From: a bacterium
GTDB taxonomy: Bacteria; UBA8248; JACPRG01; G963555815
DNA length: 64,000 bases
Assembly (NCBI GenBank): GCA_965261595.1
Contig: CBDHDG010000003.1
Location: 224,001-288,000, forward strand
Direction: 5' to 3'
Under the pieces are notes generated by a model. The model saw only the letters and a list, made by a program, of their open reading frames with translations. It was not told where the DNA came from and searched no databases. Shown piece by piece: positions 14,747 to 55,458 of the stretch; position 1 is the stretch's first letter; each line of letters starts with the position of its first letter. The position numbers and the translations under genes were made by a program.

Positions 14747-15515
14747 GAGGAAGACCCCCCCGTCGGAGATCCCGAAAAGGGCGGTTTTGCGCCGCCCCCT
14801 CCTTTTCCATTGAAGACCTGTCAGGGTCTTGAGCGCCCCTCCCCCCCTCCTTCCCCGGAGGAGGCCGCGGGATGCAATCTCCCCTGAATTGATTATCAAA
14901 TCTTGTCTGGCGGCCGCCTTTCGCTTCCATAAAAAAGCGTACGCAAAGTCCTGGCCCCATCCTCTGGTGCGGTTTTTGCACTTGTCACTAATGTGGTTTA
15001 CGAAGGCGAGGGTCGCACAGTCTGGCCAAACGGCGCAAAATTTACGTGAATCATGGATTACGAAAGCAAAATCACCGAGCATTTGGATGTCATCGAGCGT
15101 TGCTCGATATTAACCAACGGGCGGCGGGCTTTGCTGGCGGGCCTTCCGGACGCCCGGTATCCCTACGTTTATCCCCGGGACGTTTGGGCCGCCGTCCGAT
15201 TGCTCAGTGAGGTGGCGCTCAGCGATTTGCTCTTATCGGACCGGGCTTTCACCTTGTTGCGTGAAGTCGTGGCCTTCATCGCGTACGTCCAACGCGAGGA
15301 TGGGCACTGGGGACAGCGCTATGAGGTCTCCGGCGAGGATAAGTCCATCTATCGTCAGGAGGACAACGTGGCCTACGCCGGCTCCGCGTTGGCGACCTAT
15401 CTGCTCACCGCAAACGCACTCGGCCGGGAAGTCCCCAACTGGGAGGACCTCCCCCGCTCTAGGGTTTTGTTGGACACTCGATTGATCCATGATTCATGGA
15501 GAAAGGGGTGTCGCG

Positions 15516-15902
15516 ATGAACGAACAAAAGCAAGAGGGGGCTTTGGCGGAGGGCGCCCGCAGGGCGAACGGAGCCAAGGCCCCAGGGCATCGCAGTGAGC
15601 GGGGTCGGTTCTCCTGCCAGCGCAAGCGGGAGGCGGTCCTGCGTCTTTTGCGGGGCGAGAGCCTGGAGACGCTCTGCCGCGAGTTGGGCACGACAGCGGC
15701 TCGGCTTTCCGCCTGGCGCGAGGCGTTCCTTCGCGGGGGCGAGGCGGCGCTCAAAGCCCGCCCGGCGGATGAGCGGGACGAGGAGAACGCCCGGCTCAAG
15801 GCCAAGGTGGGCGAACTCACGATGGAGGGCGAGGTCCTGCGGGAGAAGATCGACCGCCTGGAGGCCGGCCGCCCTTTAGCCGGCAGGAGGTGGAGGCGAT
15901 GA
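15516..15902 (+). CDS. IS3 transposase OrfA (HTH)
   Basis: RFSCQRKREAVLRLL...LCRELG plus a leucine-zipper-like tail; ATGA overlap with orfB. Confidence 0.85.
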   Translation: MNEQKQEGALAEGARRANGAKAPGHRSERGRFSCQRKREAVLRLLRGESLETLCRELGTTAARLSAWREAFLRGGEAALKARPADERDEENARLKAKVGELTMEGEVLREKIDRLEAGRPLAGRRWRR

Positions 15903-16807
15903 GTCAGGCCCGCTTCACCTCCACGGGCAGAGCCTACGGCCTGAAGCGGGTGTGCGCCCTTTGGGGCTTGGCGCGCTCCACGGTCTACGCGCAACGGCGG
16001 CGAGAGGCGGTCCCCGTTCATGAACGCCCCACGCCCAATAAGCGCGGCCCTGTGGGCCCGTGCACCGATGCGGAACTCCTCGGCCACATCCGGCAGGTCC
16101 TGGAGGACTCTCCCTTCCATGGCGAGGGCTACCGCAAGGTGTGGGCGAGGCTGCGCTTCGCGGGCATCCGCACCAGCAAGGAGCGGGTGCGTCGCCTGAT
16201 GCGGGAGGCGGGGCTTCAGGCCCCCCACCGGGTGGGCAAACCCCGAGGTCCCAAGGCCCACAACGGGACCATCCGCACCGAGCGGCCCGACCGAATGTGG
16301 GGCACGGACATGACGACGACGGTGACCACCGAGGAGGGGATGGCCTCGGTGTTCGTGGCGGTGGATCACTGCTCGGTGGACTGCGTGGGGATCCATGCGG
16401 CCAAGAGCGGCAACCGCTTCGAGGCCCTGGAGCCGATCCGGCAGGGGGTCGCCGAGCGCTTCGCCGGCTTGGAGGCGGATGTCGCCGAGGGGCTTAAAGT
16501 TCGTCACGACCACGGCCCCGCCTATCTGTCCGATGACTTTCAGCGGGAGATCGCCTACCTGGGCATGACCAGTTCGCCCAGCTTCGTGCGGGCGCCCGAG
16601 GGAAATGGCTACTGTGAGTGGTTTATCCGCATCTTGAAGGAGAATCTCCTGTGGGTGCGCTCTTTCGCCACCGTAGAGGAACTGCGGTGGGCGCTGCTTG
16701 AGTTCAAGAACCTGTATAACCATCATTGGATTCTCGAGGGCTACGGCTACCGAACGCCGGCCCAGGCAAGGCAGGAAAAACTCGCTCAAGTTGCGGAGGC
16801 CGCATGA
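15899..16807 (+). CDS. IS3 transposase OrfB (integrase core, DDE)
   Basis: GYRKVWARL, WGTDMT, RHDHG, PEGNGYCE. Confidence 0.9.
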   Translation: MSQARFTSTGRAYGLKRVCALWGLARSTVYAQRRREAVPVHERPTPNKRGPVGPCTDAELLGHIRQVLEDSPFHGEGYRKVWARLRFAGIRTSKERVRRLMREAGLQAPHRVGKPRGPKAHNGTIRTERPDRMWGTDMTTTVTTEEGMASVFVAVDHCSVDCVGIHAAKSGNRFEALEPIRQGVAERFAGLEADVAEGLKVRHDHGPAYLSDDFQREIAYLGMTSSPSFVRAPEGNGYCEWFIRILKENLLWVRSFATVEELRWALLEFKNLYNHHWILEGYGYRTPAQARQEKLAQVAEAA

Positions 16808-17620
16808 GGTCGAATACCCTCACCCGAGTGTCCAATAACCCAGGGGCGGTCCAGTTCCTTGAAAGCAGCTTGTGGTCGCCGGAATTCGGTTTGTTGCAGC
16901 GTTACCTTCCCTTTAACGAATACATGAGTATGCACGCCCACGCCGGCAACGGCCCCTGGTTTCAGTACACCGGCATCCTGGCCCAGTATTACTATTTCAT
17001 GGGCAACCGGGATCGGGGAGATGAAATCCTCAGCATCATGGACCAATACCGGTCTGAAGACGGCTATCTGCCCGAGCACGTCAGCTCCTGCGAGCGGTTT
17101 TGGGAGTTCATCCGGACGGAATGGGAGACCGGGAATGACGCCCGCAAGGAGTTCGATCCGGAAATCCTTTTGCCGAACCTGTCGTACGATCTCATCGTCG
17201 AGGAATTGGTCAACATGAAGAAATCGTACGATGGCATCCGCGGGTATTGCACCCTCCAGAGAGGCGGGTCGTCTTTCATCCGTTTCTCCACCCCGTTGAT
17301 GTGGTCGCACGCCGAATACGCCATGGCCCTCCTCGTCCGCCGCAAGGCGGGATACCCGGCGATGATTTCCGTCTCGTGAGCCGCTGAAGAGCGGGATCGG
17401 GTCCTCCAAGATCACAGCGAATGGGTGGGACTTTTTCCAACGTGCTCGTACAGGGCGGGAGGAGAGGTTTGTCCCCGTTCGGCGATTTTGGGATGGGTGG
17501 GACAGCGCCGGAAGTTTCGCCGGGCCTCTCCGGAAACGATTTCAGGCTCGGAAATGTCGATTGCGCGAAGACCCGTTTATCGGCCGCCGGGGGGGTGTGG
17601 TAAAGGACGCGACGCGCCGA

Positions 17621-19411: not shown

Positions 19412-21079
19412 CCCGCATTTCCCATATGGATCATAAGTTTTGTCGGACCGAATGCCATTTTCTCGTGTAAGATCAAGGTGTTGGCCTCTCCCTGCCATCA
19501 TCTTGCGAGGGGACCCAATGGGTGAAGCGAAGAAGGGGGCTTTGAAGATCCGTTTTGACCGTCGGCTGAGGCTTGAGTTTCACGGAACCAGAATCACTTC
19601 GGATGCAGGATTGCTGGCCTGCCGGGAGCTGGATGATGCGCTGGGTTTGACGGTGAGAGCGCCAGTGCAATTGCAAGAGATCCGTCATGGCCGGAACATC
19701 CAGCATGAGTTGGCGCCGCTATTGCGCCAGTCGGTCTATAGCCGCTTGGCAGGGTATGAAGACACCAACGATGCCGAGCGGTTGGCCCAGGACCCCGCGA
19801 TGCAAGCCGTGGTCGGCCGCCGAGCGCTTGAGAAGCAGGCGGCGGGCGCCAACACCCTGAGCCGGTTCGAGACCGAGGTTCTCACCAAGGAGGAGAATCT
19901 CAAGGGGCCGGAGCGAGCTGAACCGGGAGTGGGTGGACCGGGCCATGGCACACTCACCCCATCAGCGAATCATCCTGGACATGGACAGCTCGGAAAGCCC
20001 CGTCCATGGGGAGCAGGAAGGTACGGCCTACAACGGCCACTTTCGTTGCACCTGTTATCACCCTCTTTTTTGCTTTAACCAGTTCGGGGACTGCGAAGGG
20101 GCGATGTTGCGCCCCGGCAACGTGCACAGCGCCGATGGCTGGCGCGAGTTGCTTTCGCCCATCGCGGCCCGGTATGAGCGGGCGGGTGTTCGCCGTTACT
20201 TCCGAGCCGATGCCGCCTTTGCGCGCCCGGAGGTCTATGAGTGCCTGGAAGCGCACAGCTTCCTTTACGCCATCCGCCTTCCCGCCAACGACGTGGTGCA
20301 GCGAGAGATCGACTTCCTCCTCACCCGCCCGGTCGGTCGCCCGCCCAAGAGACCCATCATCTTCTATTACGACTTCCGGTATCAGGCTGGAAGCTGGGAC
20401 CGTTCCCGGCGGGTCGTGGCGAAGGTGGAATGGCACTCAGGCGAACTCTTCCCTCGCGTCGGATTCATTGTCACGAACCTGACGGCTCGACCCGAGGGGG
20501 TCGTGCACTTCTACAACCAGCGAGGCACAGCCGAGCAATGGATCAAGGAAGGCAAGTACGCCATGAACTGGACACGCCTTTCCTGTCACCGGTTCGTGTG
20601 CAACCAGGTGCGGCTCCTTCTCTTCGTCCTGGCGTACAACCTGGGCAATTTCCTGCGCAGGCTAGCCTTGCCCAGGGGGCTCAAGCACTGGTCGCTGCGA
20701 AGCCTCCAGGTCAAGCTCATCAAAATGGGCGGGAGGATTGTGCGGCACGCCCGGCAGATCATCTTTCAATTGGCCGAAGTAGCGGTATCCAGGGAAGAGT
20801 TCGCCATCATCCTGGACCGAATCAACCGATTACGGCCGGTGCCGGTCTAACCTTGTGCAGAGGGTTCCCGGCAGCATGAGGTGATTGGTTAACGGGTTGA
20901 ACCGCGAATAAAGGGGACCGAAGGGCGAGGGTCCGCCTTTTGGGGCAGTCGATGGCCGTCAGCACCTTGTTGCGGAGGGTTGGAAGGCTCTTGACAAACC
21001 CATCGGAAGGGGATCAACTGGTTTTCATCGGGAAAGGGGACCGGAAACCACCCAAGCAAGTTGATATGGGAAATTCCGG
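19412..21079 (+). mobile_element. IS1380-family element A (1668 bp) with 5-bp target duplication TTATA
   Basis: IRL CCCGCATTTCCCATAT, IRR ATATGGGAAATTCCGG; TTATA at 19407-19411 and 21080-21084. Confidence 0.92.
19518..20850 (+). pseudogene. IS1380 transposase, +1 frameshift near 19910
   Basis: TSDAGLL, GYEDTND in frame 1; LDMDS, HGEQEG, RADAAF, YNQRGTAEQWIKEGK in the next frame. Confidence 0.88.
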
Positions 21080-22496: not shown

Positions 22497-23846
22497 CTAG
22501 GGTCTCCCTGGTGCAAAATCCTCCAGTGTTCTCAGATCCGGAAGCGACAACGGCTCCTTATACAAATGTTGCTCTTGCCAGAGACCGCTCTCTCGGATCC
22601 TGGTTTTTGGCGAAAAGCTGCCCAACCAGCCTGGAGAGGGACAGCAAGAGCGACAGAGGGAAACAGTCGCAATGCCGCGCCGCTCGAATTCAAGGCAAAC
22701 CTCGCGATTTGGGACGGCGATGGTGCAAAACGAGAGATTCCGTGTGATATGTTCCGATACAGAATTTTCGACCTGCCCCTGTCTTTCCTTGTCGACAAAC
22801 GTCCCATAGCGCTCACGGTTTTTCCGTGAGGTGAGATCGAAGTCCCACGTTTTGAGGAATGGGTCGCCGTCCCTGTTGAGGAGCGCACGTACCAGGTTTT
22901 TGCGAAAGATACTACGATCCTTGTTCGGCGTTACGTGCTCCTTGAGACGTGCCCTCAGGTTGCCATCGCCAGTGTGACTGCCGATCCGCACGATACGCTC
23001 ACCAACATGGCCCGGTTCGGCGGCCTCAAACAGAAAATAGAGGCCATTGTCCGGAATCCCGTAATCAGGCGGTGAAAAACTGTGTTGTTTGAGCCGGTGC
23101 AAGATCTCGTGGAGGCGTGAGCATAACTCTTCTCTTTCAACCAATTGGCGCTGCGACGGATGGAGAAAGCTCCACGGGTTTTCAAACGCCCGCTCTAGCT
23201 CTTCCACGTTGCTCATCACGCGAAAGCGGCGCTTTGCATCGGGCTGATCAAACGGGTCGGTGTTTGCCGCTACCAGTGGCAGAACAGGTGGCGCCACACC
23301 GGTCGCCAGGTTCAACAGCGCCTCGGCGGCCTCGTCGGGCAGGTGAGCGGCCAGTTCCAGAATGGAGTCTTCGTTGGCCTTCCGCACATCTGCCAGCCAC
23401 TCGACAGGCAGCCCGCAGTCGAGCAGTTCATCATCCGACAGATGTTCATAGAGGGGTGGCTTGGGGAGATCGGGCTGTTCGACTTCCACGTACTTCGGGA
23501 CGGGGATTTCCTGGACCCGCTCGCGAATTTCCACCAACTGCGCCGCGCCGGTTTTCGGATGGGTTTCCAGCTTGCGCTGCTCAGCCCAGTCATAGGCCCG
23601 GTCGTGGTGATCCACATAGCACAGGAGTAGGCTCGTTTTGGTCTTGTGCACGATGATCCGCAGGTCGCGGCTGACTCGCACCGAACAGAAGTTTTTGTCC
23701 TTGGCCCTGTCGAGCTTGTGGAATTTCTTGCCCGGGGTGTCGCGCTTTATCTGAAGGTCGAAGGCTGTGGTCTTGACGGCTTTTTGCTCGTCGCCGGTCA
23801 ATCTCGTGAGGCTGTCAGTAAAGGTGTCGGCGATACGAAAGTCCAT
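22497..23846 (-). CDS. Chimeric protein: RelE-like/UvrD-helicase-family N-terminal region fused to a GIY-YIG-like nuclease domain
   Basis: MDFRIADTFTDSL...SVRVSRDLRIIVHK...YVDHHD...FLHPSQRQLVER, then no Walker A; then GLYFLFE...IVRIG...LRARLKEH...NKDRSIFRKN...LEFE. Confidence 0.65.
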   Translation of the reverse strand: MDFRIADTFTDSLTRLTGDEQKAVKTTAFDLQIKRDTPGKKFHKLDRAKDKNFCSVRVSRDLRIIVHKTKTSLLLCYVDHHDRAYDWAEQRKLETHPKTGAAQLVEIRERVQEIPVPKYVEVEQPDLPKPPLYEHLSDDELLDCGLPVEWLADVRKANEDSILELAAHLPDEAAEALLNLATGVAPPVLPLVAANTDPFDQPDAKRRFRVMSNVEELERAFENPWSFLHPSQRQLVEREELCSRLHEILHRLKQHSFSPPDYGIPDNGLYFLFEAAEPGHVGERIVRIGSHTGDGNLRARLKEHVTPNKDRSIFRKNLVRALLNRDGDPFLKTWDFDLTSRKNRERYGTFVDKERQGQVENSVSEHITRNLSFCTIAVPNREVCLEFERRGIATVSLCRSCCPSPGWLGSFSPKTRIRESGLWQEQHLYKEPLSLPDLRTLEDFAPGRP

Positions 23847-24460
23847 TACTTGTGGGGCCAAAAGTAATGCACCGGTGCCAGCCAATATTGCGATGGATCC
23901 CGTTCGCTCTCGTGGCGGATAGAGCTGAGATCATTCACCCACCTTTTTTCGAACCCCTCTCGTGCAGCGACCGCCGAGATGATGGCATCTCGCTCGTGTT
24001 CCTGTTTGTTCTTCATCTCTACCTTTACTGAGAACTGCTTGAAAAAAGTATCGCCTCTCTTCAATTTCAACGCGGCCATTACAGCTTTGGGATGAGTCTC
24101 CGTGACGCCGACATCCGGAAAGAGTCGTCGAATCCGGTCCACGAACATCATGCCTTGGACGAGTGCCGCGCCACGCAATGAGTTCACCGCTTACACCTGT
24201 CCACCGGAAAAACCGTACTCCCCTCTTAACCACTGATCCGCCATACGGGCGCTGGAACGCCCAGACGACCACCACAAAGGGGCATCCACTCCAATACCGG
24301 CAGGTTGCGCTTTCACGAGGTTCGTGACTTTATCGACGGCCTCATCCGCACAGTCCACACAACACGTCTGCGCCGACCCGTCCGATTTGAGAATAGCCAA
24401 TCCAAAACTCCCCTTGCCGCCCGGATCCGCACCGATCCAGATGTTGTTGCGCGACCTCAT
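23846..24460 (-). pseudogene. DUF429-like RNase H-fold predicted nuclease with in-frame TAA at 24191-24193
   Basis: IGADPGG, GVDAPLWW, RMAD, ETHPK, ERDA; the two ORF-track pieces are in the same frame (GGQV*AVNSLRG). Confidence 0.7.
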
Positions 24461-24483
24461 ACCTTGAACACCTCGAACCTCTG

Positions 24484-26551
24484 TCAAATCGATAGTTCAT
24501 CATTGAGAAAAGCCCTTGCGCAGGCGTAGTGCCAGTTTGTGTGCACGGGCTTGTAACGAACCGTTCGCCAGCCAGTTTGTACGGGCGCCTCAGATGACGC
24601 GTAGAAGACAATCTTTTCGGCAGGAAGCTGCTTGGTTAGTCGGTAAAACAACGGGAGATAGTCCTTTCCCCCGCTCTAGGGTTTTGTTGGACACTCGATT
24701 GATCCATGATTCATGGAGAAAGGGGTGTCGCGATGAACGAACAAAAGCAAGAGGGGGCTTTGGCGGAGGGCGCCCGCAGGGCGAACGGAGCCAAGGCCCC
24801 AGGGCATCGCAGTGAGCGGGGTCGGTTCTCCTGCCAGCGCAAGCGGGAGGCGGTCCTGCGTCTTTTGCGGGGCGAGAGCCTGGAGACGCTCTGCCGCGAG
24901 TTGGGCACGACAGCGGCTCGGCTTTCCGCCTGGCGCGAGGCGTTCCTTCGCGGGGGCGAGGCGGCGCTCAAAGCCCGCCCGGCGGATGAGCGGGACGAGG
25001 AGAACGCCCGGCTCAAGGCCAAGGTGGGCGAACTCACGATGGAGGGCGAGGTCCTGCGGGAGAAGATCGACCGCCTGGAGGCCGGCCGCCCTTTAGCCGG
25101 CAGGAGGTGGAGGCGATGAGTCAGGCCCGCTTCACCTCCACGGGCAGAGCCTACGGCCTGAAGCGGGTGTGCGCCCTTTGGGGCTTGGCGCGCTCCACGG
25201 TCTACGCGCAACGGCGGCGAGAGGCGGTCCCCGTTCATGAACGCCCCACGCCCAATAAGCGCGGCCCTGTGGGCCCGTGCACCGATGCGGAACTCCTCGG
25301 CCACATCCGGCAGGTCCTGGAGGACTCTCCCTTCCATGGCGAGGGCTACCGCAAGGTGTGGGCGAGGCTGCGCTTCGCGGGCATCCGCACCAGCAAGGAG
25401 CGGGTGCGTCGCCTGATGCGGGAGGCGGGGCTTCAGGCCCCCCACCGGGTGGGCAAACCCCGAGGTCCCAAGGCCCACAACGGGACCATCCGCACCGAGC
25501 GGCCCGACCGAATGTGGGGCACGGACATGACGACGACGGTGACCACCGAGGAGGGGATGGCCTCGGTGTTCGTGGCGGTGGATCACTGTTCGGTGGACTG
25601 CGTGGGGATCCATGCGGCCAAGAGCGGCAACCGCTTCGAGGCCCTGGAGCCGATCCGGCAGGGGGTCGCCGAGCGCTTCGCCGGCTTGGAGGCGGACGTC
25701 GCCGAGAGGCTTAAAGTTCGTCACGACCACGGCCCCGCCTATCTGTCCGATGACTTTCAGCGGGAGATCGCCTACCTGGGCATGACCAGTTCGCCCAGCT
25801 TCGTGCGGGCGCCCGAGGGAAATGGCTACTGTGAGTGGTTTATCCGCATCTTGAAGGAGAATCTCCTGTGGGTGCGCTCTTTCGCCACCGTAGAGGAACT
25901 GCGGTGGGCGCTGCTTGAGTTCAAGAACCTGTACAACCATCATTGGATTCTCGAGGGCTACGGCTACCGAACGCCGGCCCAGGCAAGGCAGGAAAAACTC
26001 GCTCAAGTTGCGGAGGCCGCATGAGGTCGAATACCCTCACCCGAGTGTCCAATAACCCAGGGGCGGTCCACCTTGCCACCAAAAAAGTAGATCGGCCCCT
26101 CATCATCAGGGCTCAAATGGCAGAAATCCTCATACGGATCGCCTTTCCCGCGGCGCTTATAGGCATCGGCATTACCAGAAAAGGTGATGTCATAGATGGG
26201 AAGGGGGTAGTTGGCACGTACGAGCCCCCAGCCTGCAGACAAAATGAGAACATTTTCAAGACCAAACTTGGAGACCAGTTCCCGATAGATCGGAGGTCTG
26301 TAGAGTCGGTAAGCTTCGAGCAGTTTGAAAGGGTTGTCGTGTCGGGTGTCATCATAATTATCGAGTTGCTCGCGCCACGACGTGCCCGGTCGGTCTGAAG
26401 GAGCATCGTCATCGGGGTGCGCCCATTCCCAGTCGCTACTTGCAGGGGTTTTTTCGGGGTGCGCGACAAACTTCACGCGCTTGCCAGCCTTCGTCTGGAA
26501 AAAGCCCGCTGAGGGCACCTTCGACCCAGCGCACTGAATCACAACTTTCAT
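24484..26551 (-). pseudogene. DUF6884/YaaA-like protein (219 aa when reconstructed) interrupted by IS3 copy 2
   Basis: Removing the IS and one CCTT gives a 660-nt open frame ...FFGGK|DYLPLFYRLT...TNWHYACA...; motifs VIQCAGSK, AYRLY, ILSAGWGLV, PIYDITF. Confidence 0.7.
24667..26070 (+). mobile_element. IS3-family insertion sequence, copy 2 (1404 bp), 4-bp target duplication CCTT
   Basis: CCTT at 24663-24666 and 26071-26074; orfA 24733-25119, orfB 25116-26024; only a few SNPs versus copy 1. Confidence 0.93.
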
Positions 26552-26685
26552 GATCGATTATCTCACAAATTCAGGGACAGAAGTTCTGCAACGGATTTAC
26601 CCGACAACTACTTTTTCGGTTAGTATACAAGGCGGGGAAATGGTGAGATCAAAAACTTCCTTGCAAACTCCGGCTTAAGACGCGG

Positions 26686-26746
26686 TGGGCCACTCTTGGT
26701 TTCTTGGACATTCGGGCGAGGGTAATCGACCTCATGCGGCCTCCGC
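26686..26746 (-). mobile_element. Solo diverged right end of a related IS3 element, inverted
   Basis: TGGGCCACTCTTGGTTTCTTGGACATTCGGGCGAGGGTAATCGACCTCATGCGGCCTCCGC resembles the reverse complement of the last ~60 bp of the IS3 copies. Confidence 0.8.
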
Positions 26747-28415: not shown

Positions 28416-29705
28416 ATGCAGCGCGAAGCCATCCATTGTCCGAAGGTCCCCCGGCCCGTCATGGGGTCCCACGCCGTCAAGGCCGGGGACTTTGTCTTCC
28501 TGGGCGGGCAGATCCCGTCCGATTACAAAAACGGGCTCGCCCCCGAGGTGAAAAATAACAGCCGCGGTGTCTCCAACCCGGTGGACCTGTCGAAGATTCA
28601 GTCGGATTACATCCTCAAAAACGCGCGGGCCATCCTGAAATCCGCCGGGTCGTCTTTCAAGAACGGCGTCCGGATCGATCAGTTCGTGACACGGCCCGAG
28701 GCCGCCTCTCCGTATCTGGACACCCGCAAACGGTTTGTGCCGCCCTCCATCCGGCCGGCCAGCACCCACGTCGCGATCGAGGCCCTGGCTGTGCCCGACG
28801 CGTTGGTGGGGCTCGAGCTGATTGCCGTCACGGACGCCGGAGCGGCCCGGAAGCGGATCATCGACATGGAGGGCGTCCCCAAGTCTCCGGGCGGACCTTT
28901 CGCGGGGGGGCCGCAGGCGGTTGCGGCGGGGGACTTCATCTTCTTGACCGGCCAGATCGCGAGCGATTTCAAAACCGGCATCGTCCCCGAGGCCCGGAAG
29001 GATCCCGGTTTCTGGTACGGCTCGGCCATCGGGCTTCAGACCGAATACGTCCTGAAGCGTCTTCAGATGGTTCTCGAAGAGGCGGAGAGCTCGCTCGATC
29101 ACGTCGTCAAAGCCGATGTGTGGCTCATGGACATGGAGGACGTCCGTGAGTTCGATGAGGTCTGGAAGGAGTATTTCCCGAAAAATCCGCCCGCGCGGAG
29201 CCTCCTGCCGGTCAGCCGGATCGCCGATGCCGAATGCCTGATCGAGATCAACCTGATTGCCGTCCGGGAAGGGGGGAAGGCGAAAAAAAAGAGCGTTATG
29301 GCCAGGGGCGTCCCCGCGCCGGGGGGCCACCAGCCCCACGCGGTTCGCGCCGGGGATTTCCTGTTCCTGTCTGGGATTTTTGCGGCCGACGACGGCCGGG
29401 AGATCGCTCCGCAGGCGCGGATTCACCCGGACATGCCTTGGTTCGGCGCCGCCGGCCGCCGGCAGACCGAGCATATCCTGAGCCAAATGGAGAAAATCTG
29501 CCAGGCGGGCGGGAGCCGCCTCGCGGACGTTGTCTGGACGCAGAACTTCTACACGGACTTCAGTGAGTTCGACGCCTCTCGCGAAGTCTGGGAGCGGGTT
29601 TTTCCGAAAGCGCCCCCGGCGGCGCTGGTTTGCGGGGTGAGGCCCCCCCAATGGGTTCGGGGCTGCACGATCCAGATGGATGCCGTGGCCATCGTCGCAC
29701 GTTAG
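28416..29705 (+). CDS. RidA (YjgF/YER057c/UK114) family protein with three tandem domains
   Basis: Three repeats: HAVKAGDFVFLGGQI, QAVAAGDFIFLTGQI, HAVRAGDFLFLSGIF. Confidence 0.85.
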   Translation: MQREAIHCPKVPRPVMGSHAVKAGDFVFLGGQIPSDYKNGLAPEVKNNSRGVSNPVDLSKIQSDYILKNARAILKSAGSSFKNGVRIDQFVTRPEAASPYLDTRKRFVPPSIRPASTHVAIEALAVPDALVGLELIAVTDAGAARKRIIDMEGVPKSPGGPFAGGPQAVAAGDFIFLTGQIASDFKTGIVPEARKDPGFWYGSAIGLQTEYVLKRLQMVLEEAESSLDHVVKADVWLMDMEDVREFDEVWKEYFPKNPPARSLLPVSRIADAECLIEINLIAVREGGKAKKKSVMARGVPAPGGHQPHAVRAGDFLFLSGIFAADDGREIAPQARIHPDMPWFGAAGRRQTEHILSQMEKICQAGGSRLADVVWTQNFYTDFSEFDASREVWERVFPKAPPAALVCGVRPPQWVRGCTIQMDAVAIVAR

Positions 29706-33708: not shown

Positions 33709-35403
33709 CCCGCATTTCCCATATGGATGATAATTTTTAACGCCCCGAAGGCCGTTTTCTCGTGTAAAATCAAGGTGTTGGCCTCTCCCTGCCATCATCT
33801 TGCGAGGGGACCCGATGGGTGAAGCGAAAAAGAGGCCGTTGAGGCTCCAATTCGACGGTCGGCTCAGGCTGGAGTTTCACGGAGCAAAGGTTACGAGTGA
33901 CGCCGGTTTGCTTGCCTATCGTGAACTGGATGAGGTGTTGGGGCTGACGAAGGCGGCCGAGGGGTTTCTGTCCGATTCACGGACGGGCGGGAACACCCGG
34001 CACAGCCTCACCGCTTTGGTGCGCCAGTCGGTCTACAGCCGCCTGGCAGGATATAAAGACACCAATGATGCCGAGCGGCTCTGTGTCGATCCCGCCATGC
34101 GTCAGGTGGTTGGGGGGCGAGCGAAGTATCACACCGCTGCCTCCACCAGCCAGATGAGCCGATTCGAGACGCAGACCCTCACCCGGCCCCTTAACCCCTC
34201 AAGGCGCTGAGCGGTCTGCCCGGTGTGTTGGTGGATCGTGTCCGCAAACGCAAGCCGATTCGCAAGCTGATCCTGGACATGGACAGTTCGGTCAGCCCGA
34301 CCCACGGTGAGCAGGAAGGCTCTTCCTACAACGGCCACTTCGGCTGCACCTGCTATCACCCACTGTTTTGCTTCAACCAGTTTGGCGATCTGGAGCGGGC
34401 GCTGTTGCGCAACGGCAAGGTCCACAGCGCTGATGACTGGTGGTCTGTATTGGAGCCGGTGGTAGCTCGCTACCGGGATGCGAAGGTCTGTCGGTTTTTT
34501 CGAGGCGACGCGGCATTTGCCAAGCCGGAGGTGTACCGATACCTTGAGGCGGAGGGCTACTCCTATGCGATTCGGCTTCCGGCCAACGCCATCTTGTACA
34601 GGGACATCGAATACCTTCTGACCCGGCCGGTTGGCCGACCGCCCAAAAGGCCCATTATCTTCTACCACAGCGTCTCCTATCAGGCGGCTAGTTGGGAGAA
34701 GCCTCGCCGGGTGGTGGTGGCGGTCGAGTGGCACCAGGGCGAGTTGTTTCCAAGAGTCAGCTTCATCGTGACCAACCTGCACTGGCGGGAAGAGAACGTC
34801 GTGAGGTTCTACAACCAGCGTGGGACGGCGGAGCAGTGGATCAAGGAGGGCAAGTACGCCCTGAACTGGACGCGCCTGTCCTGCCACGGCTTTGAAGAGA
34901 ACCAGGTTCGCTTGCAACTATTTGCCTTGGCGTACAACCTGGCAAACTTCCTGCGGCGGCTGGCGTTGCCCAGAGCGGTGAAGCACTGGTCGCTGACGAC
35001 GTTACGCGAGAAGCTGATTAAGATTGGGGCCAAGGTGGTCACCCACGCCCGGCACACCACCTTCCAGATGGCCGAGGTGGCCGTGCCGCGTCAACTGTTC
35101 AGGGCAATCCTTGAACGAATTCGACGGTTGTGGTTACCGCCTCCCGTACCAGATACCGGATGACGGAGCAGATGGCCCGGAAGCTTAGTGACGTGGTGGA
35201 GACGGGGGATCAGTCTGTGCCGAACTCCCCTGAGTGTGCCGGTAGAGCTGGGTTTTCAAGGGATTGCGGCTTTAGGACGGCCGTTGCCCCTCGATTGAGC
35301 AGAGGGTTCTGCAAAGAGACCCTGAATCTGTAGTAAAATGGGGTACTTTGATGACACAGGAGGACCGCAGGATGGCTAAGAGTGGTCATCTGGGAAATCC
35401 CGG
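33709..35403 (+). mobile_element. IS1380-family element B; transposase 33815-35163 frameshifted near 34195
   Basis: IRL identical to A at the tip (CCCGCATTTCCCATATGGAT), IRR CATCTGGGAAATCCCGG; two extra C at AAC-CC-CTC; flanks TATAT and TTTAA do not match. Confidence 0.9.
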
Positions 35404-36295: not shown

Positions 36296-37738
36296 GAGGG
36301 TGTCCCGAATTCAGTTGAAGGTTTGAGGCGGCGGTCCGTGTGTGGTTCACCTTATGCGACCTCCTCTCGGGTGTCAAAGCGGGGCTCGTCCAGAACGGCC
36401 TTCAGGATCCACAGGTCCCGGTAGCCGTCCAGGCGACGGAAGTTCTTCTCGGTGGCGAGGAAGGCGGAAGCGGCCCACCTTTTCACCATCGCCCCGTCCC
36501 GCCAGCGGCCGACGCGCCGGGTGCGCATCCGCACCCCCGAACAGGGACTCTCGATCAGGTTCGTGCTCACCAGGCAGCGCCGAAGGCCGGGCGGAAGAGC
36601 CAAGCGGTTGACGGTGAAGATCTCCTCCAGACCCTCCAAAAGGCTGGCGGCCGCGTCCGGATGCTCGATCTGAAGCCACCGGGCCTGCTTGCGCAGACGG
36701 GCAATCCCCTCCTTCGGCGCCAGCCGCCAGGCCGCCTTCATCGTCGCCTTCACCGGATCCTTCAACTCCTCGGGCAGGTGGTCCATCACGTTCTTCACCT
36801 TGTGGTTGCGGCACCGCTGCACCGGATTGTCGTCCCCGTACACCCGGTCAATCGCCGCACGAAGCGCCCTCGAGCCGTCGATGACAAAAAGCCGACGCCG
36901 CCCGGGCCGCACGCCGCGCTCCACCAACTCCTCAAGAAGCGCCGTCACGACCGTGGCGTTCTCGGTGGCGCCCGACCTCAGGCCCAGAACGTGCTTTTGG
37001 CCCCGTGTGTCCACCCCAACGGCCACGATGACGTGATGCGCGCCGAAGCGCAGACCGTCCAGGTAGAGGATGAGGAGGTCGATGTCGTCAAAACGCCGCT
37101 CACAAAGACGCCGCAGCTTCGCCTCGGCCGCCTCGATGCTCTCCCGGCTCACGGCCGACTTCGACACCCCCACCGTCTCGGCCAGCTCGGGAAGAACGGC
37201 CGCGTAGTTCCGCGTCGAGACCCCTCGCATCAGCAAATCCAGCATCCGCTCCCCCAGCCCGGGGTCGGCCTGCATGGCCGCATACGCCGGCACCTCCACC
37301 TCCCCGCCCCGACCCTGGCCCCGGCGGCGAAGCCGCGGCTTTCTCACCTTCAGCTTGCGCCCCTTCAGGGTCACCCGGCCCCCCTGGCTGCCGTGCCGGC
37401 GGACCTCGCCACCCCGCTTGCCTGGATGCGGCGCGCCCGTCAAGCCCTTGGCCGACAGCAAAAGCACGGCCTCCAGGCCCGCCCGGCCCATGACGTCCAT
37501 CAGGTCCTCCACCGCCAGTTGGGACTGCTCCACCAGCGACACCAGAGGAAAAAACGCCTGCCCGTGCTCCGCCACAAAGGCGGCCAACCTTTGGGTCTCT
37601 TTCTTCTCGATGATCTGGTAAGCTTCACTCATGGCGGTTCCTCCTCTTTGAATGTTTGCCAACCCGATTCTAACCGAGTCGGCAGGAGTGAACCGCCACC
37701 TCTTTTTCTCAACCTTCAACTATGAATGGGACAGGCTC
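36296..37738 (-). mobile_element. IS256-family element (1443 bp), 8-bp target duplication CGAATGGG
   Basis: CGAATGGG at 36288-36295 and 37739-37746; imperfect IRs GAGGGTGTCCC...GTTGAAGGTT and AACCTTCAAC...GGGACAGGCTC. Confidence 0.92.
36352..37632 (-). CDS. IS256 family transposase (apparently intact)
   Basis: GVSTR, LYLDG, VIDGS, QRCRNHK, STNLIES. Confidence 0.92.
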   Translation of the reverse strand: MSEAYQIIEKKETQRLAAFVAEHGQAFFPLVSLVEQSQLAVEDLMDVMGRAGLEAVLLLSAKGLTGAPHPGKRGGEVRRHGSQGGRVTLKGRKLKVRKPRLRRRGQGRGGEVEVPAYAAMQADPGLGERMLDLLMRGVSTRNYAAVLPELAETVGVSKSAVSRESIEAAEAKLRRLCERRFDDIDLLILYLDGLRFGAHHVIVAVGVDTRGQKHVLGLRSGATENATVVTALLEELVERGVRPGRRRLFVIDGSRALRAAIDRVYGDDNPVQRCRNHKVKNVMDHLPEELKDPVKATMKAAWRLAPKEGIARLRKQARWLQIEHPDAAASLLEGLEEIFTVNRLALPPGLRRCLVSTNLIESPCSGVRMRTRRVGRWRDGAMVKRWAASAFLATEKNFRRLDGYRDLWILKAVLDEPRFDTREEVA

Positions 37739-53622: not shown

Positions 53623-55349
53623 AGGTCGCGATTTACGCCCGCAAATCGACGGAACAAACCGGGGCAGGAGAGGAACAAAAATCCGTTGCCCGGCAGATTC
53701 AGCACTCCCGAGAATATGCGGCGGGCAAGGGATGGACAGTCCTTGATGAGTGCGTCTTTTCGGACGATGGAATCAGCGGGGCCGAATTCCAGAAGCGGCC
53801 CGGTTTCCTCCGTCTGATGAACAGCTTGAAGCCACGGCCCCCGTTCCAAGTTCTCGTAATGTCGGAGGAATCGAGGTTGGGGCGCGAGGCCATCGAGACC
53901 GGGTACGTATTGAAGCAAATCCTTGACGCGGGAGTGCGCGTTTTTCACTACCTGGAGAACCGGGAACGCACGCTCGATTCGGCCATGGATAAGGTGATGC
54001 TCAGTCTTGTGAATTTCGCCTCCGAGATGGAAAGAGAACGGGCCAAGACCCGGACCCATGACGCGCTCCTTGACAGGGCGAAAAGGGGATACGTCACCGG
54101 GGGGACGGTGTACGGATACTCGAATCGGGAAATCCTCACGACTGAGACGGCGACGGACGGAAGCAGGGAAAGAAGCCATGTTTTGCGGGAGATTCATTCC
54201 GAACAGGCAGACACCGTGCGCCGGATATTTGGACTTTACGTTGACGGTCTGGGGTTCAAGCGAATCGCAAAACGCCTCAACGACGACGGAATCCAACCCC
54301 CCGGAAAGCGGTCCACCACATGGGCACCCTCCGCAATCCGGGAAATCCTTTTGCGCCCCCCTATACCGGGGTGAAATCGTCTGGAACAAGACGCAGAGAA
54401 TCGACCGTGCGGGGACCAAGGCGCAAAGAACCCGGCCCGAAAGCGAGTGGGTGAGGTTCACCAGGGCGGAACTTCGAATCCTACCCGATGCCCTTTGGGA
54501 ACGCGCCCAGGAGGTTCTTGAGCAGGCCCGCAAGACCCATTACGGAAAAGAAACGTCGCCAGGCGGAAGGGCTTTCCGGGCTTCCCGCCATCACCACGGG
54601 TCGCCCTACCTGTTGACGGGATTCGCCAAATGCACGGAATGCGGAAGCTCGATCATCTCCGTCTCCCGGAGCCACGGCAAGCAACGCGCCCACTTTTACG
54701 GGTGCAGTTATTACCATACCCGAGGGACACCAGCTTGCACGAACGCCGTTCAAATGCGCCAGGAGATCGTAAACCCCGCCATCATCGAGGCCATAAGCGC
54801 ACCGCTCAGCCCGGAGATCATTGAGGTATCCATTCAACGGGCGATAGAGAAAATCCGGGATAGTCAATCAGGCCAGAACGTAGACGCAAAGGCCCTGGAA
54901 AAGCGAATCGCAGAAAGCGAGGCCCGGGAAAGGAATCTCATCGAAGCCGTGAAGCAAGGCGAGGCCCCCCAGGCCCTTTTGCGGCCCTCAGAGACGAAGA
55001 GGCCACAAGGGGAAGCCTACAAGCCGAACTGGACCGGCTGGCAAGCCTTCGCCAGTCCTCATCCCTTGACCTGAAGCGTATCGAAAAGATCATCAGAAGG
55101 CGGGTCGAGGATGTCCAAGGAGTGCTCGGACGGCATATCCCCGAATCCAGGCGTATCATGAAAACCCTACTCGTCGGACGAATGGAATTCACGCCTATCA
55201 TTGAAGCGTATACAAGGGGTTACGCATTCAAAGGCAGGGCTTCGCTTGGCGGCTTGTTGGCGGGAACCGCCCATACCAAAGAGGTTGGTAGCCCCAACGG
55301 GAATCGAACCCGTGTTTCTGCCTTGAGAGGGCAGCGTCCTAACCGCTAG
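53619..55349 (+). pseudogene. Large serine recombinase (resolvase, recombinase and Zn-ribbon domains) with two frameshifts; 3' end overlaps tRNA-Glu
   Basis: YARKST, DDGISGA, SRLGR, LLTGFAKCTECG, YGC...C; +1 shift in poly-C near 54356-54361 and -1 shift near 54980. Confidence 0.88.
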
Positions 55350-55360
55350 ACGATGGGGCC
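55286..55360 (-). tRNA. tRNA-Glu (CTC)
   Basis: GGCCCCATCGTCTAGCGGTTAGGAC...CTCTCAA loop...GGTTCGATTCCC...CCA. Confidence 0.96.
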
Positions 55361-55384: not shown

Positions 55385-55458
55385 TGGCTGGGGAGCAAGG
55401 ATTCGAACCTTGGTTTTCTGATCCAGAGTCAGACGTCTTGCCGCTGGACCACTCCCCA
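55385..55458 (-). tRNA. tRNA-Gln (CTG)
   Basis: TGGGGAGTGGTCCAGCGG...CTCTGGA loop...GGTTCGAATCCT...CCA. Confidence 0.96.

Follow-up and report, generated by a model that had tools for sequence, protein, structure and literature searches.

We analysed a 64,000-nucleotide stretch of a bacterial genome of the UBA8248 lineage (assembly GCA_965261595.1, contig CBDHDG010000003.1, positions 224,001 to 288,000 of the forward strand), hereafter the window, and within it a locus at 22497-26551 that an initial annotation, made from the letters, had proposed to be a hidden three-gene operon and a candidate undescribed defence or nucleic-acid-processing system. On the minus strand the locus reads gene 1, gene 2, gene 3, with an insertion sequence (IS) of the IS3 family inside gene 1. 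Its features are listed below from the upstream end, followed by a separate IS3 end nearby.

26071..26551, minus strand: gene 1, 5' part (159 codons plus the CCTT/AAGG target copy); putative divergent DUF6884 superfamily member, CxxxK at C7..K11 and LSAGWG at 104-109
24667..26070, plus strand: IS3-family insertion sequence of 1404 bp, orfA at 24706-25119 and orfB at 25107-26024; splits gene 1
24484..24666, minus strand: gene 1, 3' part (last 59 codons and the stop TGA at 24486-24484); matches residues 162-219 of the homologue P0241
23846..24460, minus strand: gene 2, DUF429 pseudogene of 204 codons with an in-frame TAA at 24193-24191
23130..23846, minus strand: gene 3 residues 1-239, RelE/HigB-fold domain plus linker; helicase-family N-terminal accessory region, helicase core absent
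22497..23129, minus strand: gene 3 residues 240-449, GIY_YIG_3 / PDC-M57B nuclease-type domain (PADLOC PDLC04713)
26684..26746, no strand assigned: solo IS3 end of 63 nt, 86% complementary to the end at 26010-26072 (blastn 85.7%)

The three genes are tightly spaced. Gene 1 stops at 24484 and the ATG of gene 2 is at 24460, leaving a 23-nt gap, and the TAA stop codon of gene 2 (23848-23846) shares 1 nt with the ATG of gene 3 (23846-23844), giving the sequence TAATG. This layout, including the 204-codon frame with its one TAA and the open reading frame (ORF) of 449 amino acids (aa) that follows it, was present in the sequence as originally described. The GC content of the locus was 0.54-0.59, compared to 0.60 and 0.64 in the adjoining 500-bp intervals and 0.625 in the whole window, and GC at third codon positions was 0.57-0.72 in the locus genes versus 0.82-0.87 in neighbouring host genes, in agreement with the earlier remark that the region is more AT-rich than its flanks and of foreign composition. 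Homologue counts at E<=1e-3 were 712 for gene 1, 744 for gene 2 and at least 8000 for gene 3. Homologue numbers of this size for all three genes show that the reading frames are not chance ORFs. A scan for promoter and terminator consensus sites returned no more sites than in shuffled sequences and none on the minus strand, and an NCBIfam search of the locus gave nothing useful.

Gene 1 was reconstructed by removing the insertion. The element at 24667-26070 was assigned to the IS3 family on the helix-turn-helix domain of orfA (HTH_Tnp_1 in Pfam), the rve domain of orfB (HTH_21/rve), its imperfect terminal inverted repeats and a short target duplication, the CCTT direct repeat at 24663-24666 and 26071-26074. 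IS3-family target duplications are typically 3-4 bp. Scripted excision of the element together with one CCTT copy left 660 nt, corresponding to 219 codons and a stop with no internal stop. A natural uninterrupted gene 1 of 219 aa (P0241) was 100% identical to the window over the 159-aa N-terminal piece and identical at 57 of 58 positions over the C-terminal piece, so that the proposed restoration of a 219-aa gene was confirmed both by the excision and by an intact homologue. A second full IS3 copy lies in the window at 15450-16853 and is 99.7% identical (4 mismatches in 1404 bp). With such a copy only 8 kb away, the insertion into gene 1 is plausibly recent, and the near-identity of the two copies points to recent transposition. 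The solo IS3 end at 26684-26746, left over from another copy and located between gene 1 and a UbiD gene, has the opposite orientation to the IS end within gene 1; the N-terminal part of gene 1 is flanked by two like IS ends.

The gene 1 family consists of proteins of ~218 aa, with 712 matches at E<=1e-3 among 743 candidates. Across 36 members the residues C7, K11, L104, S105, A106, G107 and G109 were invariant, the latter forming an LSAGWG block. CxxxK and LSAxxG are named as marks of DUF6884 in the Pfam-team account of that family (PMC11701544), and gene 1 carries both motifs. The DUF6884 profile PF21818.4 was precomputed on many gene 1 homologues. The DUF6884 domain is also component A of PDC-M57, a candidate system that PADLOC defines in a two-gene form with DUF6884 as A and GIY_YIG_3 as B. 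Alignment of the gene 1 family with the DUF6884 domains of PDC-M57A-B fusions using hhalign gave 94.5% probability (E=8e-8). Relative to PDC-M57A, gene 1 has a ~60-aa insertion after CxxxK and a C-terminal extension, and a Roseomonas homologue of gene 1 matched PDC-M57A at 2.9e-5. The structure model of gene 1 (pLDDT 92.5) had as its best PDB match E. coli YaaA (5caj; E=1.5e-2, probability 0.82, TM 0.42), with no PDB match at E<=1e-3. Together, motifs, profile alignment and predicted model suggest that gene 1 is a divergent member of the DUF6884 superfamily, possibly with a YaaA-like fold, in line with the first annotation. Gene 1 also had weak matches to DpdC (E=1.3e-4). A Dpd system was considered and rejected, as the DpdC similarity is weak and no other dpd genes are present near the locus in the window.

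Homologues of gene 1 were also found on plasmids. On the Roseomonas mucosa plasmid NZ_CP034922.1 (L054:1572-6672) a 276-aa homologue lies downstream of a gene for a 1115-aa TM0106 RecB-like nuclease/helicase (MkoA-like, E=2.5e-40) and a gene for a 319-aa hypothetical protein, and an HNH endonuclease gene lies opposite the homologue. Plasmid records contained five Roseomonas matches to gene 1, located after a RecB-like nuclease/helicase, which are too few to establish a usual neighbourhood.

Gene 2 matched DUF429 (PF04250) at 26.6 bits, compared to the Pfam cut-off of 23, and its 744 homologues are mostly ~204 aa long. DUF429 has been placed among the predicted nucleases on the RuvC side of clade D in the RNase H-like superfamily (PMC3985635). 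Alignment of 22 sequences identified D12, D59 (near-invariant), E121, H123, H155 and D158 as conserved. The reading frame of gene 2 is not intact. Its one in-frame TAA (24193-24191) falls at the near-invariant Q90, which is Gln in 20 of 21 aligned homologues and Leu in the remaining one, and a change from CAA to TAA would be a single-base route to this stop. Plasmid records held only distant DUF429 matches, and a whole-word literature search on DUF429 found no link to defence.

Gene 3 (23846..22497) encodes 449 aa and falls into two parts of different origin. Residues 1-239 were compared to the N-terminus of a 690-aa helicase (P0002) and were identical at 206 of 243 positions (85%), and this similarity ends at FLHPSQRQLVERE, residue 239, where the helicase core starts. 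Among the best 120 matches to gene 3, 119 covered 53% of the query and these were mostly UvrD-type helicases of ~690 aa. The same region (RelE-N below) matched a phage helicase family in PHROGs (phrog_1967, 'DNA helicase', E=3e-18). Residues 240-443 matched the PADLOC model PDC-M57B (PDLC04713) at E=2.7e-72 over profile positions 3-207 of 211, and a second PDC-M57B model (PDLC04714) at E=2.6e-18. PF26468.1, named GIY_YIG_3 in Pfam 38.1, was precomputed on P0001, which is 99% identical to gene 3, and the nearest Atlas clusters of the C-terminal domain were 100% PF26468 GIY_YIG_3 (score 0.97). The domain was modelled with a pLDDT of 94.5 and its ten best PDB matches were all GIY-YIG endonucleases, each with weak scores (E no better than 1.1; query TM 0.22-0.29). 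Within the domain family G29, R45, V47, G50, R61 and E121 were invariant or at least 90% conserved. Gly-Leu-Tyr and Arg-Ile-Gly motifs are present in the domain, along with an invariant Arg and a conserved Glu; the GIY Tyr is frequent but not invariant and the second Tyr is replaced. The domain is double the length of a minimal GIY-YIG core and has a conserved Cys/Trp-rich C-terminal part. By sequence, gene 3 is a chimera of a putative RelE-fold helicase N-terminus and a predicted GIY-YIG domain, with an in-frame junction at ~239/240. The domain calls made at the outset for all three genes were supported.

PHROGs contained no match for gene 1, gene 2 or the GIY-YIG domain, and phage records gave no tblastn match to gene 1 or to the GIY-YIG domain. 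PDB sequence searches with the gene 1, DUF429 and GIY-YIG profiles and with the RelE-N region returned chance-level hits only (E 0.11 or worse). A predicted complex of the gene 1 family with the GIY-YIG domain scored 0.00 in a run without controls and counts as evidence neither way.

The RelE-like character of the gene 3 N-terminus raised the question of a RelE-type toxin-antitoxin module, in which this region would be an mRNA interferase toxin and an upstream gene its antitoxin. HigB-like_toxin (PF05015) matched the gene 3 N-terminus at 20.3 bits, HigB/RelE-like matches were found in the first ~85 residues of 14 of 15 helicase-family N-terminal regions (14.8-22.3 bits), and the Joint Genome Institute (JGI) uses names such as 'mRNA-degrading endonuclease RelE' for helicase homologues. 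However, all of these scores are under the Pfam cut-off of 27. Elsewhere the domain is the N-terminus of a ~690-aa helicase beside DUF429, with the exception of one free-standing 263-aa form described below, and it also matches the phage helicase family. No small antitoxin-like gene was recognised beside the domain in the window or in the other loci. We therefore consider this explanation highly improbable, and a classical RelE toxin-antitoxin pair was rejected on the sub-cut-off scores, the helicase context and the missing antitoxin-like gene.

To place gene 2 and the N-terminal part of gene 3 in context, we used 53 DUF429 loci of other species, taken from one-genome-per-species contigs via the alignment of DUF429 homologues. 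In 18 of the 53 loci (L001, L002, L004-L010, L012-L017, L019, L027 and L028; e.g. L008:4227-9678) a RelE-N/helicase gene (~690 aa) was scored as directly downstream of DUF429, and all 18 also had a methylase. The RelE-N region follows DUF429 immediately in 17 of these 18 (a gene is inserted in L016), and likewise in the window with its 1-nt overlap. An N6/N4 DNA methylase of ~900-1100 aa was encoded upstream on the same strand in 20 of the 53 loci; it adjoins DUF429 in most, is separated from it by further genes in L006, L010 and L016, and is reduced to a C-terminal remnant in L007. The methylase matched N6_N4_Mtase in Pfam and MTase_III (PDLC03632, 1422 bits) in PADLOC. This operon occurs in many phyla at 55-75% identity, and stops and starts overlap where genes abut. 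Its layout of methylase, DUF429 and helicase looks restriction-modification-like, and our literature search found no published description of a methylase-DUF429-RelE/UvrD operon.

The middle of this operon shares 60-85% identity with gene 2 and gene 3 residues 1-239, and has the same order and the same overlapping stop and start. The TAATG coupling, taken earlier as a sign of a new operon, is thus inherited from the methylase-DUF429-helicase operon. A maximum-likelihood tree of DUF429 was built from 48 rows, with the partial or broken loci L035, L044, L046, L047, L049, L050 and L053 left out. Gene 2 fell in a 14-row set with support 99/97, of which 9 rows had methylase and helicase and 1 had methylase only, and the phyla in the set were mixed. 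Tree and locus context together indicate that gene 2 and the N-terminal part of gene 3 represent the central section of a methylase-DUF429-helicase operon that is mobile. The outer parts of that operon are missing. No methylase remnant was detected in the window by tblastn with the L008 methylase (best E=0.033, elsewhere in the window), and no helicase core was detected in the window, where helicase residues 1-243 alone matched. Conversely, neither piece of gene 1 nor the GIY-YIG domain was present in any of the 53 loci at E<=1e-5, with nothing credible at E<=10, which speaks against the original proposal of an undescribed three-gene system.

Decay of the operon was also seen elsewhere, with a DUF429 gene cut after 23 aa in L053 and truncated helicases in L004 and L007. 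At L053 (4185-7987) the methylase is intact and a short-chain dehydrogenase gene stands directly after the cut DUF429 gene. One locus, L010 (2575-10148), has a different arrangement, in the order methylase, AriA/OLD-like ABC ATPase, DUF429, RelE-N-only protein, a 211-aa ORF (P0534) and a Lamassu LmuA homologue (E=2.3e-120). The free-standing RelE-N protein of this locus is 263 aa long and 50% identical. P0534 has a GVY...VIYIG motif, but its hhalign comparison to GIY-YIG was non-significant (6.6% probability); it matched no family model and nothing in PHROGs, and its PDB sequence search was at chance level (E 0.11 or worse).

The GIY-YIG domain led to a second set of relatives. A search of 1.84 billion representatives returned 1149 matches at E<=1e-3, and among the 150 matches listed 83 were <=260 aa and 50 were >330 aa long. 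None of these 150 GIY_YIG_3 representatives had similarity to RelE-N, gene 1 or gene 2. We scanned 33 relatives, picked mainly for a length of > ~290 aa from the 150 matches listed. DUF6884/PDC-M57A was found in the same polypeptide in 25 of the 33, often with a DUF7662 tail, and some of these DUF6884-GIY_YIG_3 fusions add PIF1/RecD helicase, TPR or LRR parts. Because they are fused in 25 of the 33 scanned relatives, DUF6884 and GIY_YIG_3 appear to be functionally tied. The PADLOC PDC systems derive from 145 untested 'guilt-by-embedding' candidates (10.1101/2024.01.29.577857), a report whose main text does not carry the name PDC-M57, and a literature search on the names 'PDC-M57' and 'GIY_YIG_3' found neither. 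The GIY-YIG domain had five Haloarcula matches in plasmid records; a DUF955 gene lies beside them, and they are too few to establish a usual neighbourhood. The fusion of RelE-N to GIY_YIG_3 was not seen elsewhere among the 53 loci and the 150 representatives.

The state of the genes across the population was assessed by exact-sequence look-up in a collection of 15 billion proteins, with lineage states read from cluster records, not contig by contig. The two gene 2 fragments, of 113 aa and 89 aa, were found exactly in 9 and 10 contigs, so the nonsense change is common to sister genomes. Intact gene 1 (P0524) was found in 7 contigs and the IS-truncated 182-aa form in one, the window's own record. 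In the cluster of the 449-aa chimera 4 of 7 members were full length and three were truncated or frameshifted (329, 258 and 433 aa). In a second lineage gene 2 was intact (P0121, P0531; 96% identical) and gene 1 was present only as 74-aa ORFs with the same start residue. Three separate lesions therefore affect this locus, the nonsense change in gene 2, the IS3 insertion in gene 1 and the gene 1 truncation in the second lineage, and the independent hits on two genes inferred from the window were borne out. In these cluster records each lineage seen has at least one broken gene and no all-intact copy was identified. Intact copies are distributed across genomes, with P0524 for gene 1, P0121 for gene 2 and P0517 for gene 3. 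The gene 1 and gene 2 pieces of the window are identical to those of its sisters. Compared with P0517, the most frequent sister form, window gene 3 has 4 substitutions of its own. Two of them lie in the conserved DHPDAQRRF block, and another, in RKNxGR, puts Val in place of a Gly with at least 90% conservation. No occurrence of the trio was seen beyond a single clade of at least 96% identity.

Taken together, we consider it probable that the locus is a mosaic assembled from two defence-type gene sets in one narrow lineage and that it has lost its function in this genome. That the pieces have a mosaic ancestry is shown by their sequence relationships. The first set would comprise gene 2 and gene 3 residues 1-239, the middle of the mobile methylase-DUF429-helicase operon from which the methylase (~930 aa) and the motor are gone. 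The second would comprise gene 1 and the last 210 residues of gene 3, a putative superfamily-level counterpart of the untested candidate PDC-M57, and gene 1 and the gene 3 tail do look like a divergent PDC-M57 pair. At the in-frame junction at ~239/240 the helicase motor would have been swapped for the GIY-YIG domain.

Several observations weigh against this interpretation. The gathering score of 30 for DUF6884 (PF21818) was not reached by gene 1, as intact P0241 scored 17.3 bits and the N-terminal piece of the window 12.7 bits. The PDC-M57A model (PDLC04712) gave no match to the gene 1 pieces at E<=1, nor to intact P0241 at E<=1e-3. On the Roseomonas plasmids, the sole gene 1-family context visible, no GIY_YIG_3 gene is annotated beside the gene 1 homologue. 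The link between gene 1 and the GIY-YIG domain is therefore drawn at the level of the superfamily. L010 hints that a RelE-N region with a GIY-YIG-like partner may recur independently. In addition, the arrangement is kept in two lineages with each gene intact in at least one genome, and this would fit a selected, coherent system too.

In that alternative the three genes form one coherent defence or nucleic-acid-processing system under selection, in which DUF429 and the RelE-fold adaptor were rewired from a helicase effector to a GIY-YIG nuclease and came under a DUF6884 sensor, and which is costly and repeatedly inactivated. The tight spacing with its 23-nt gap and TAATG overlap, three products that are all predicted to act on nucleic acids, an arrangement kept in two lineages of 96% identity with intact P0524, P0121 and P0517, and three different inactivating lesions would all be expected of such a system. 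The L010 order of DUF429, RelE-N-only protein and 211-aa ORF with a GIY-YIG-like motif, and the DUF6884-GIY_YIG_3 fusions in 25 of 33 scanned proteins, point in the same direction. However, the architecture is found in 0 of 53 DUF429 loci and 0 of 150 GIY_YIG_3 representatives, the overlap between the second and third genes goes back to the parental operon and the L010 motif match is non-significant. Furthermore, gene 2 is split in the window's lineage and gene 1 is truncated in the second, no all-intact copy was identified in the cluster records seen, and no defence island surrounds the locus in the window. We consider a single coherent system quite unlikely.

The opposite possibility is that the chimera and the gene order are accidents of deletion and IS-mediated rearrangement and that the locus was never functional. 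Mobile elements are abundant here: a span of 22 kb contains two IS3 copies, a solo IS3 end, one element of IS256 type and two IS1380-like elements. Methylase and helicase core have been lost, the pseudogene state of gene 2 is fixed in the lineage of the window, and similar wrecks exist at L053, L004 and L007. Against simple wreckage, the gene 3 junction is in frame and lies exactly between two complete domains, with PDC-M57B positions 3-207 of 211 kept, and the 449-aa ORF is full length in 4 of 7 cluster members. Gene 1 moreover is complete and well conserved in its family and stands beside the usual partner domain of its superfamily. This explanation we judge unlikely.

Returning to the mosaic interpretation, its intact ancestor would have been a nuclease system that targeted DNA and had no methylase. 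Its DUF6884 protein would bind DNA and inspect or alter a flipped base, by analogy with DpdC, YaaA and YfjM. DpdC converts preQ0 to ADG within DNA (PMC10164549), and YaaA and YfjM are described as DNA binders linked to DUF6884 (PMC11701544). The GIY-YIG domain would then cut, and the RelE-fold N-terminal region would probably keep DUF429 docked as in the parental operon. With no methylase and two nucleases kept, such a system would lack self-protection and be costly, which would fit its repeated inactivation. An extension of this mechanism, to which we give little credence, is that DUF429 and the RelE-fold N-terminal region form a portable cassette for alternative effectors, a UvrD motor in the common methylase-linked operon, a GIY-YIG nuclease here and, in L010, a free-standing form beside a GIY-YIG-like ORF. 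The window would then record a motor-to-nuclease swap that joined a restriction-modification-like module to a DUF6884-guided nuclease of the PDC-M57 type, giving a methylase-less and self-toxic two-nuclease defence whose ancestor was functional and which was silenced three times.

The surroundings of the locus consist of metabolic genes and IS elements and form no defence island in the window. The initial annotation had looked to an association with restriction-modification, BREX or DISARM genes; none were found within ~15 kb of the locus in the window, while its description of the surroundings as IS-rich was accurate. Two IS1380-like (DDE_Tnp_1_4) transposase genes lie at 19440-20850 and 33800-35160, each split in two ORFs (212+305 aa and 136+312 aa), which could reflect a frameshift or decay. 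An IS256-type (Transposase_mut) gene is located at 36352-37716 on the minus strand. At 28416-29705 a gene for a 429-aa protein with three tandem RidA/L-PSP (Ribonuc_L-PSP) domains adjoins UbiD-type decarboxylase and S15 peptidase genes. The sole Rfam matches of the window were two tRNA genes at 55289-55360 and 55388-55458 on the minus strand, far from the locus.

These data suggest that the hidden operon, although really present in the DNA, is a patchwork without activity, and it should accordingly not be counted as a new defence system. The nuclease fusion in gene 3 illustrates how defence systems swap parts, and the locus provides a dated decay series in one population, with a shared nonsense change, then an IS3 hit, plus an independent truncation in a sister lineage. 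The untested PDC-M57 gains a concrete hypothesis, in which a DUF6884 part would inspect bases and a GIY-YIG part coupled to it would cut. Of more interest is the parental operon, a by-product of the analysis. Through it the orphan DUF429 family would acquire a role open to testing, that of nuclease in a restriction-modification-like system.

Comparison to known systems places each part of the locus. The parental operon resembles Gabija (GajA nuclease plus GajB UvrD-type helicase) in combining a nuclease with a UvrD-type helicase whose core matches GajB models at up to E=2.6e-26, and resembles Type III restriction-modification (Mod plus Res) in its Type-III-like Mod methylase. It differs from both in that its nuclease is DUF429, which is RNase H-like, rather than OLD/Toprim or PD-(D/E)XK, and no REase_III match was seen; the window retains nothing of the helicase part. 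Gene 1 shares the CxxxK and LSAxxG motifs with the DUF6884/YaaA/YfjM/DpdC group, its best structural match, at E=1.5e-2, is YaaA, and it has weak DpdC matches, but it remains under the Pfam gathering score and has no dpd genes nearby. The ten best fold matches of the GIY-YIG domain are GIY-YIG endonucleases such as the UvrC N-domain, R.Eco29kI and T4 EndoII, and the domain has GIY-YIG-type motifs, but these fold matches are weak and the domain differs in its double core size and in its Cys/Trp-rich tail.

Two known or newly recognised arrangements come closest to the locus as a whole. Like PDC-M57, it has a B domain matched over nearly the whole profile (gene 3 residues 240-443) and a gene 1 that falls in the superfamily of A. 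Part of the locus thus matches a named candidate, and this, with the lack of co-location in other species, goes most of the way to the refutation that the initial annotation had set out for its proposal. Unlike PDC-M57, gene 1 has no match to the A model, B follows a foreign RelE-fold/helicase N-terminus in the same protein, and A and B are neither adjacent nor fused, as the DUF429 gene and the 239-residue foreign N-terminus lie between them. With no match to the A model and no adjacent genes, the locus is therefore not PDC-M57 by the PADLOC definition. Like the methylase-DUF429-helicase operon, the locus has DUF429 followed by the RelE-fold region with an overlapping stop and start; unlike that operon, it has in the window no methylase and no motor, and a GIY-YIG domain stands in the place of the motor. 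It is therefore not a methylase-DUF429-helicase operon either, because methylase and motor are absent. The locus is a member of neither system, but a hybrid of both.

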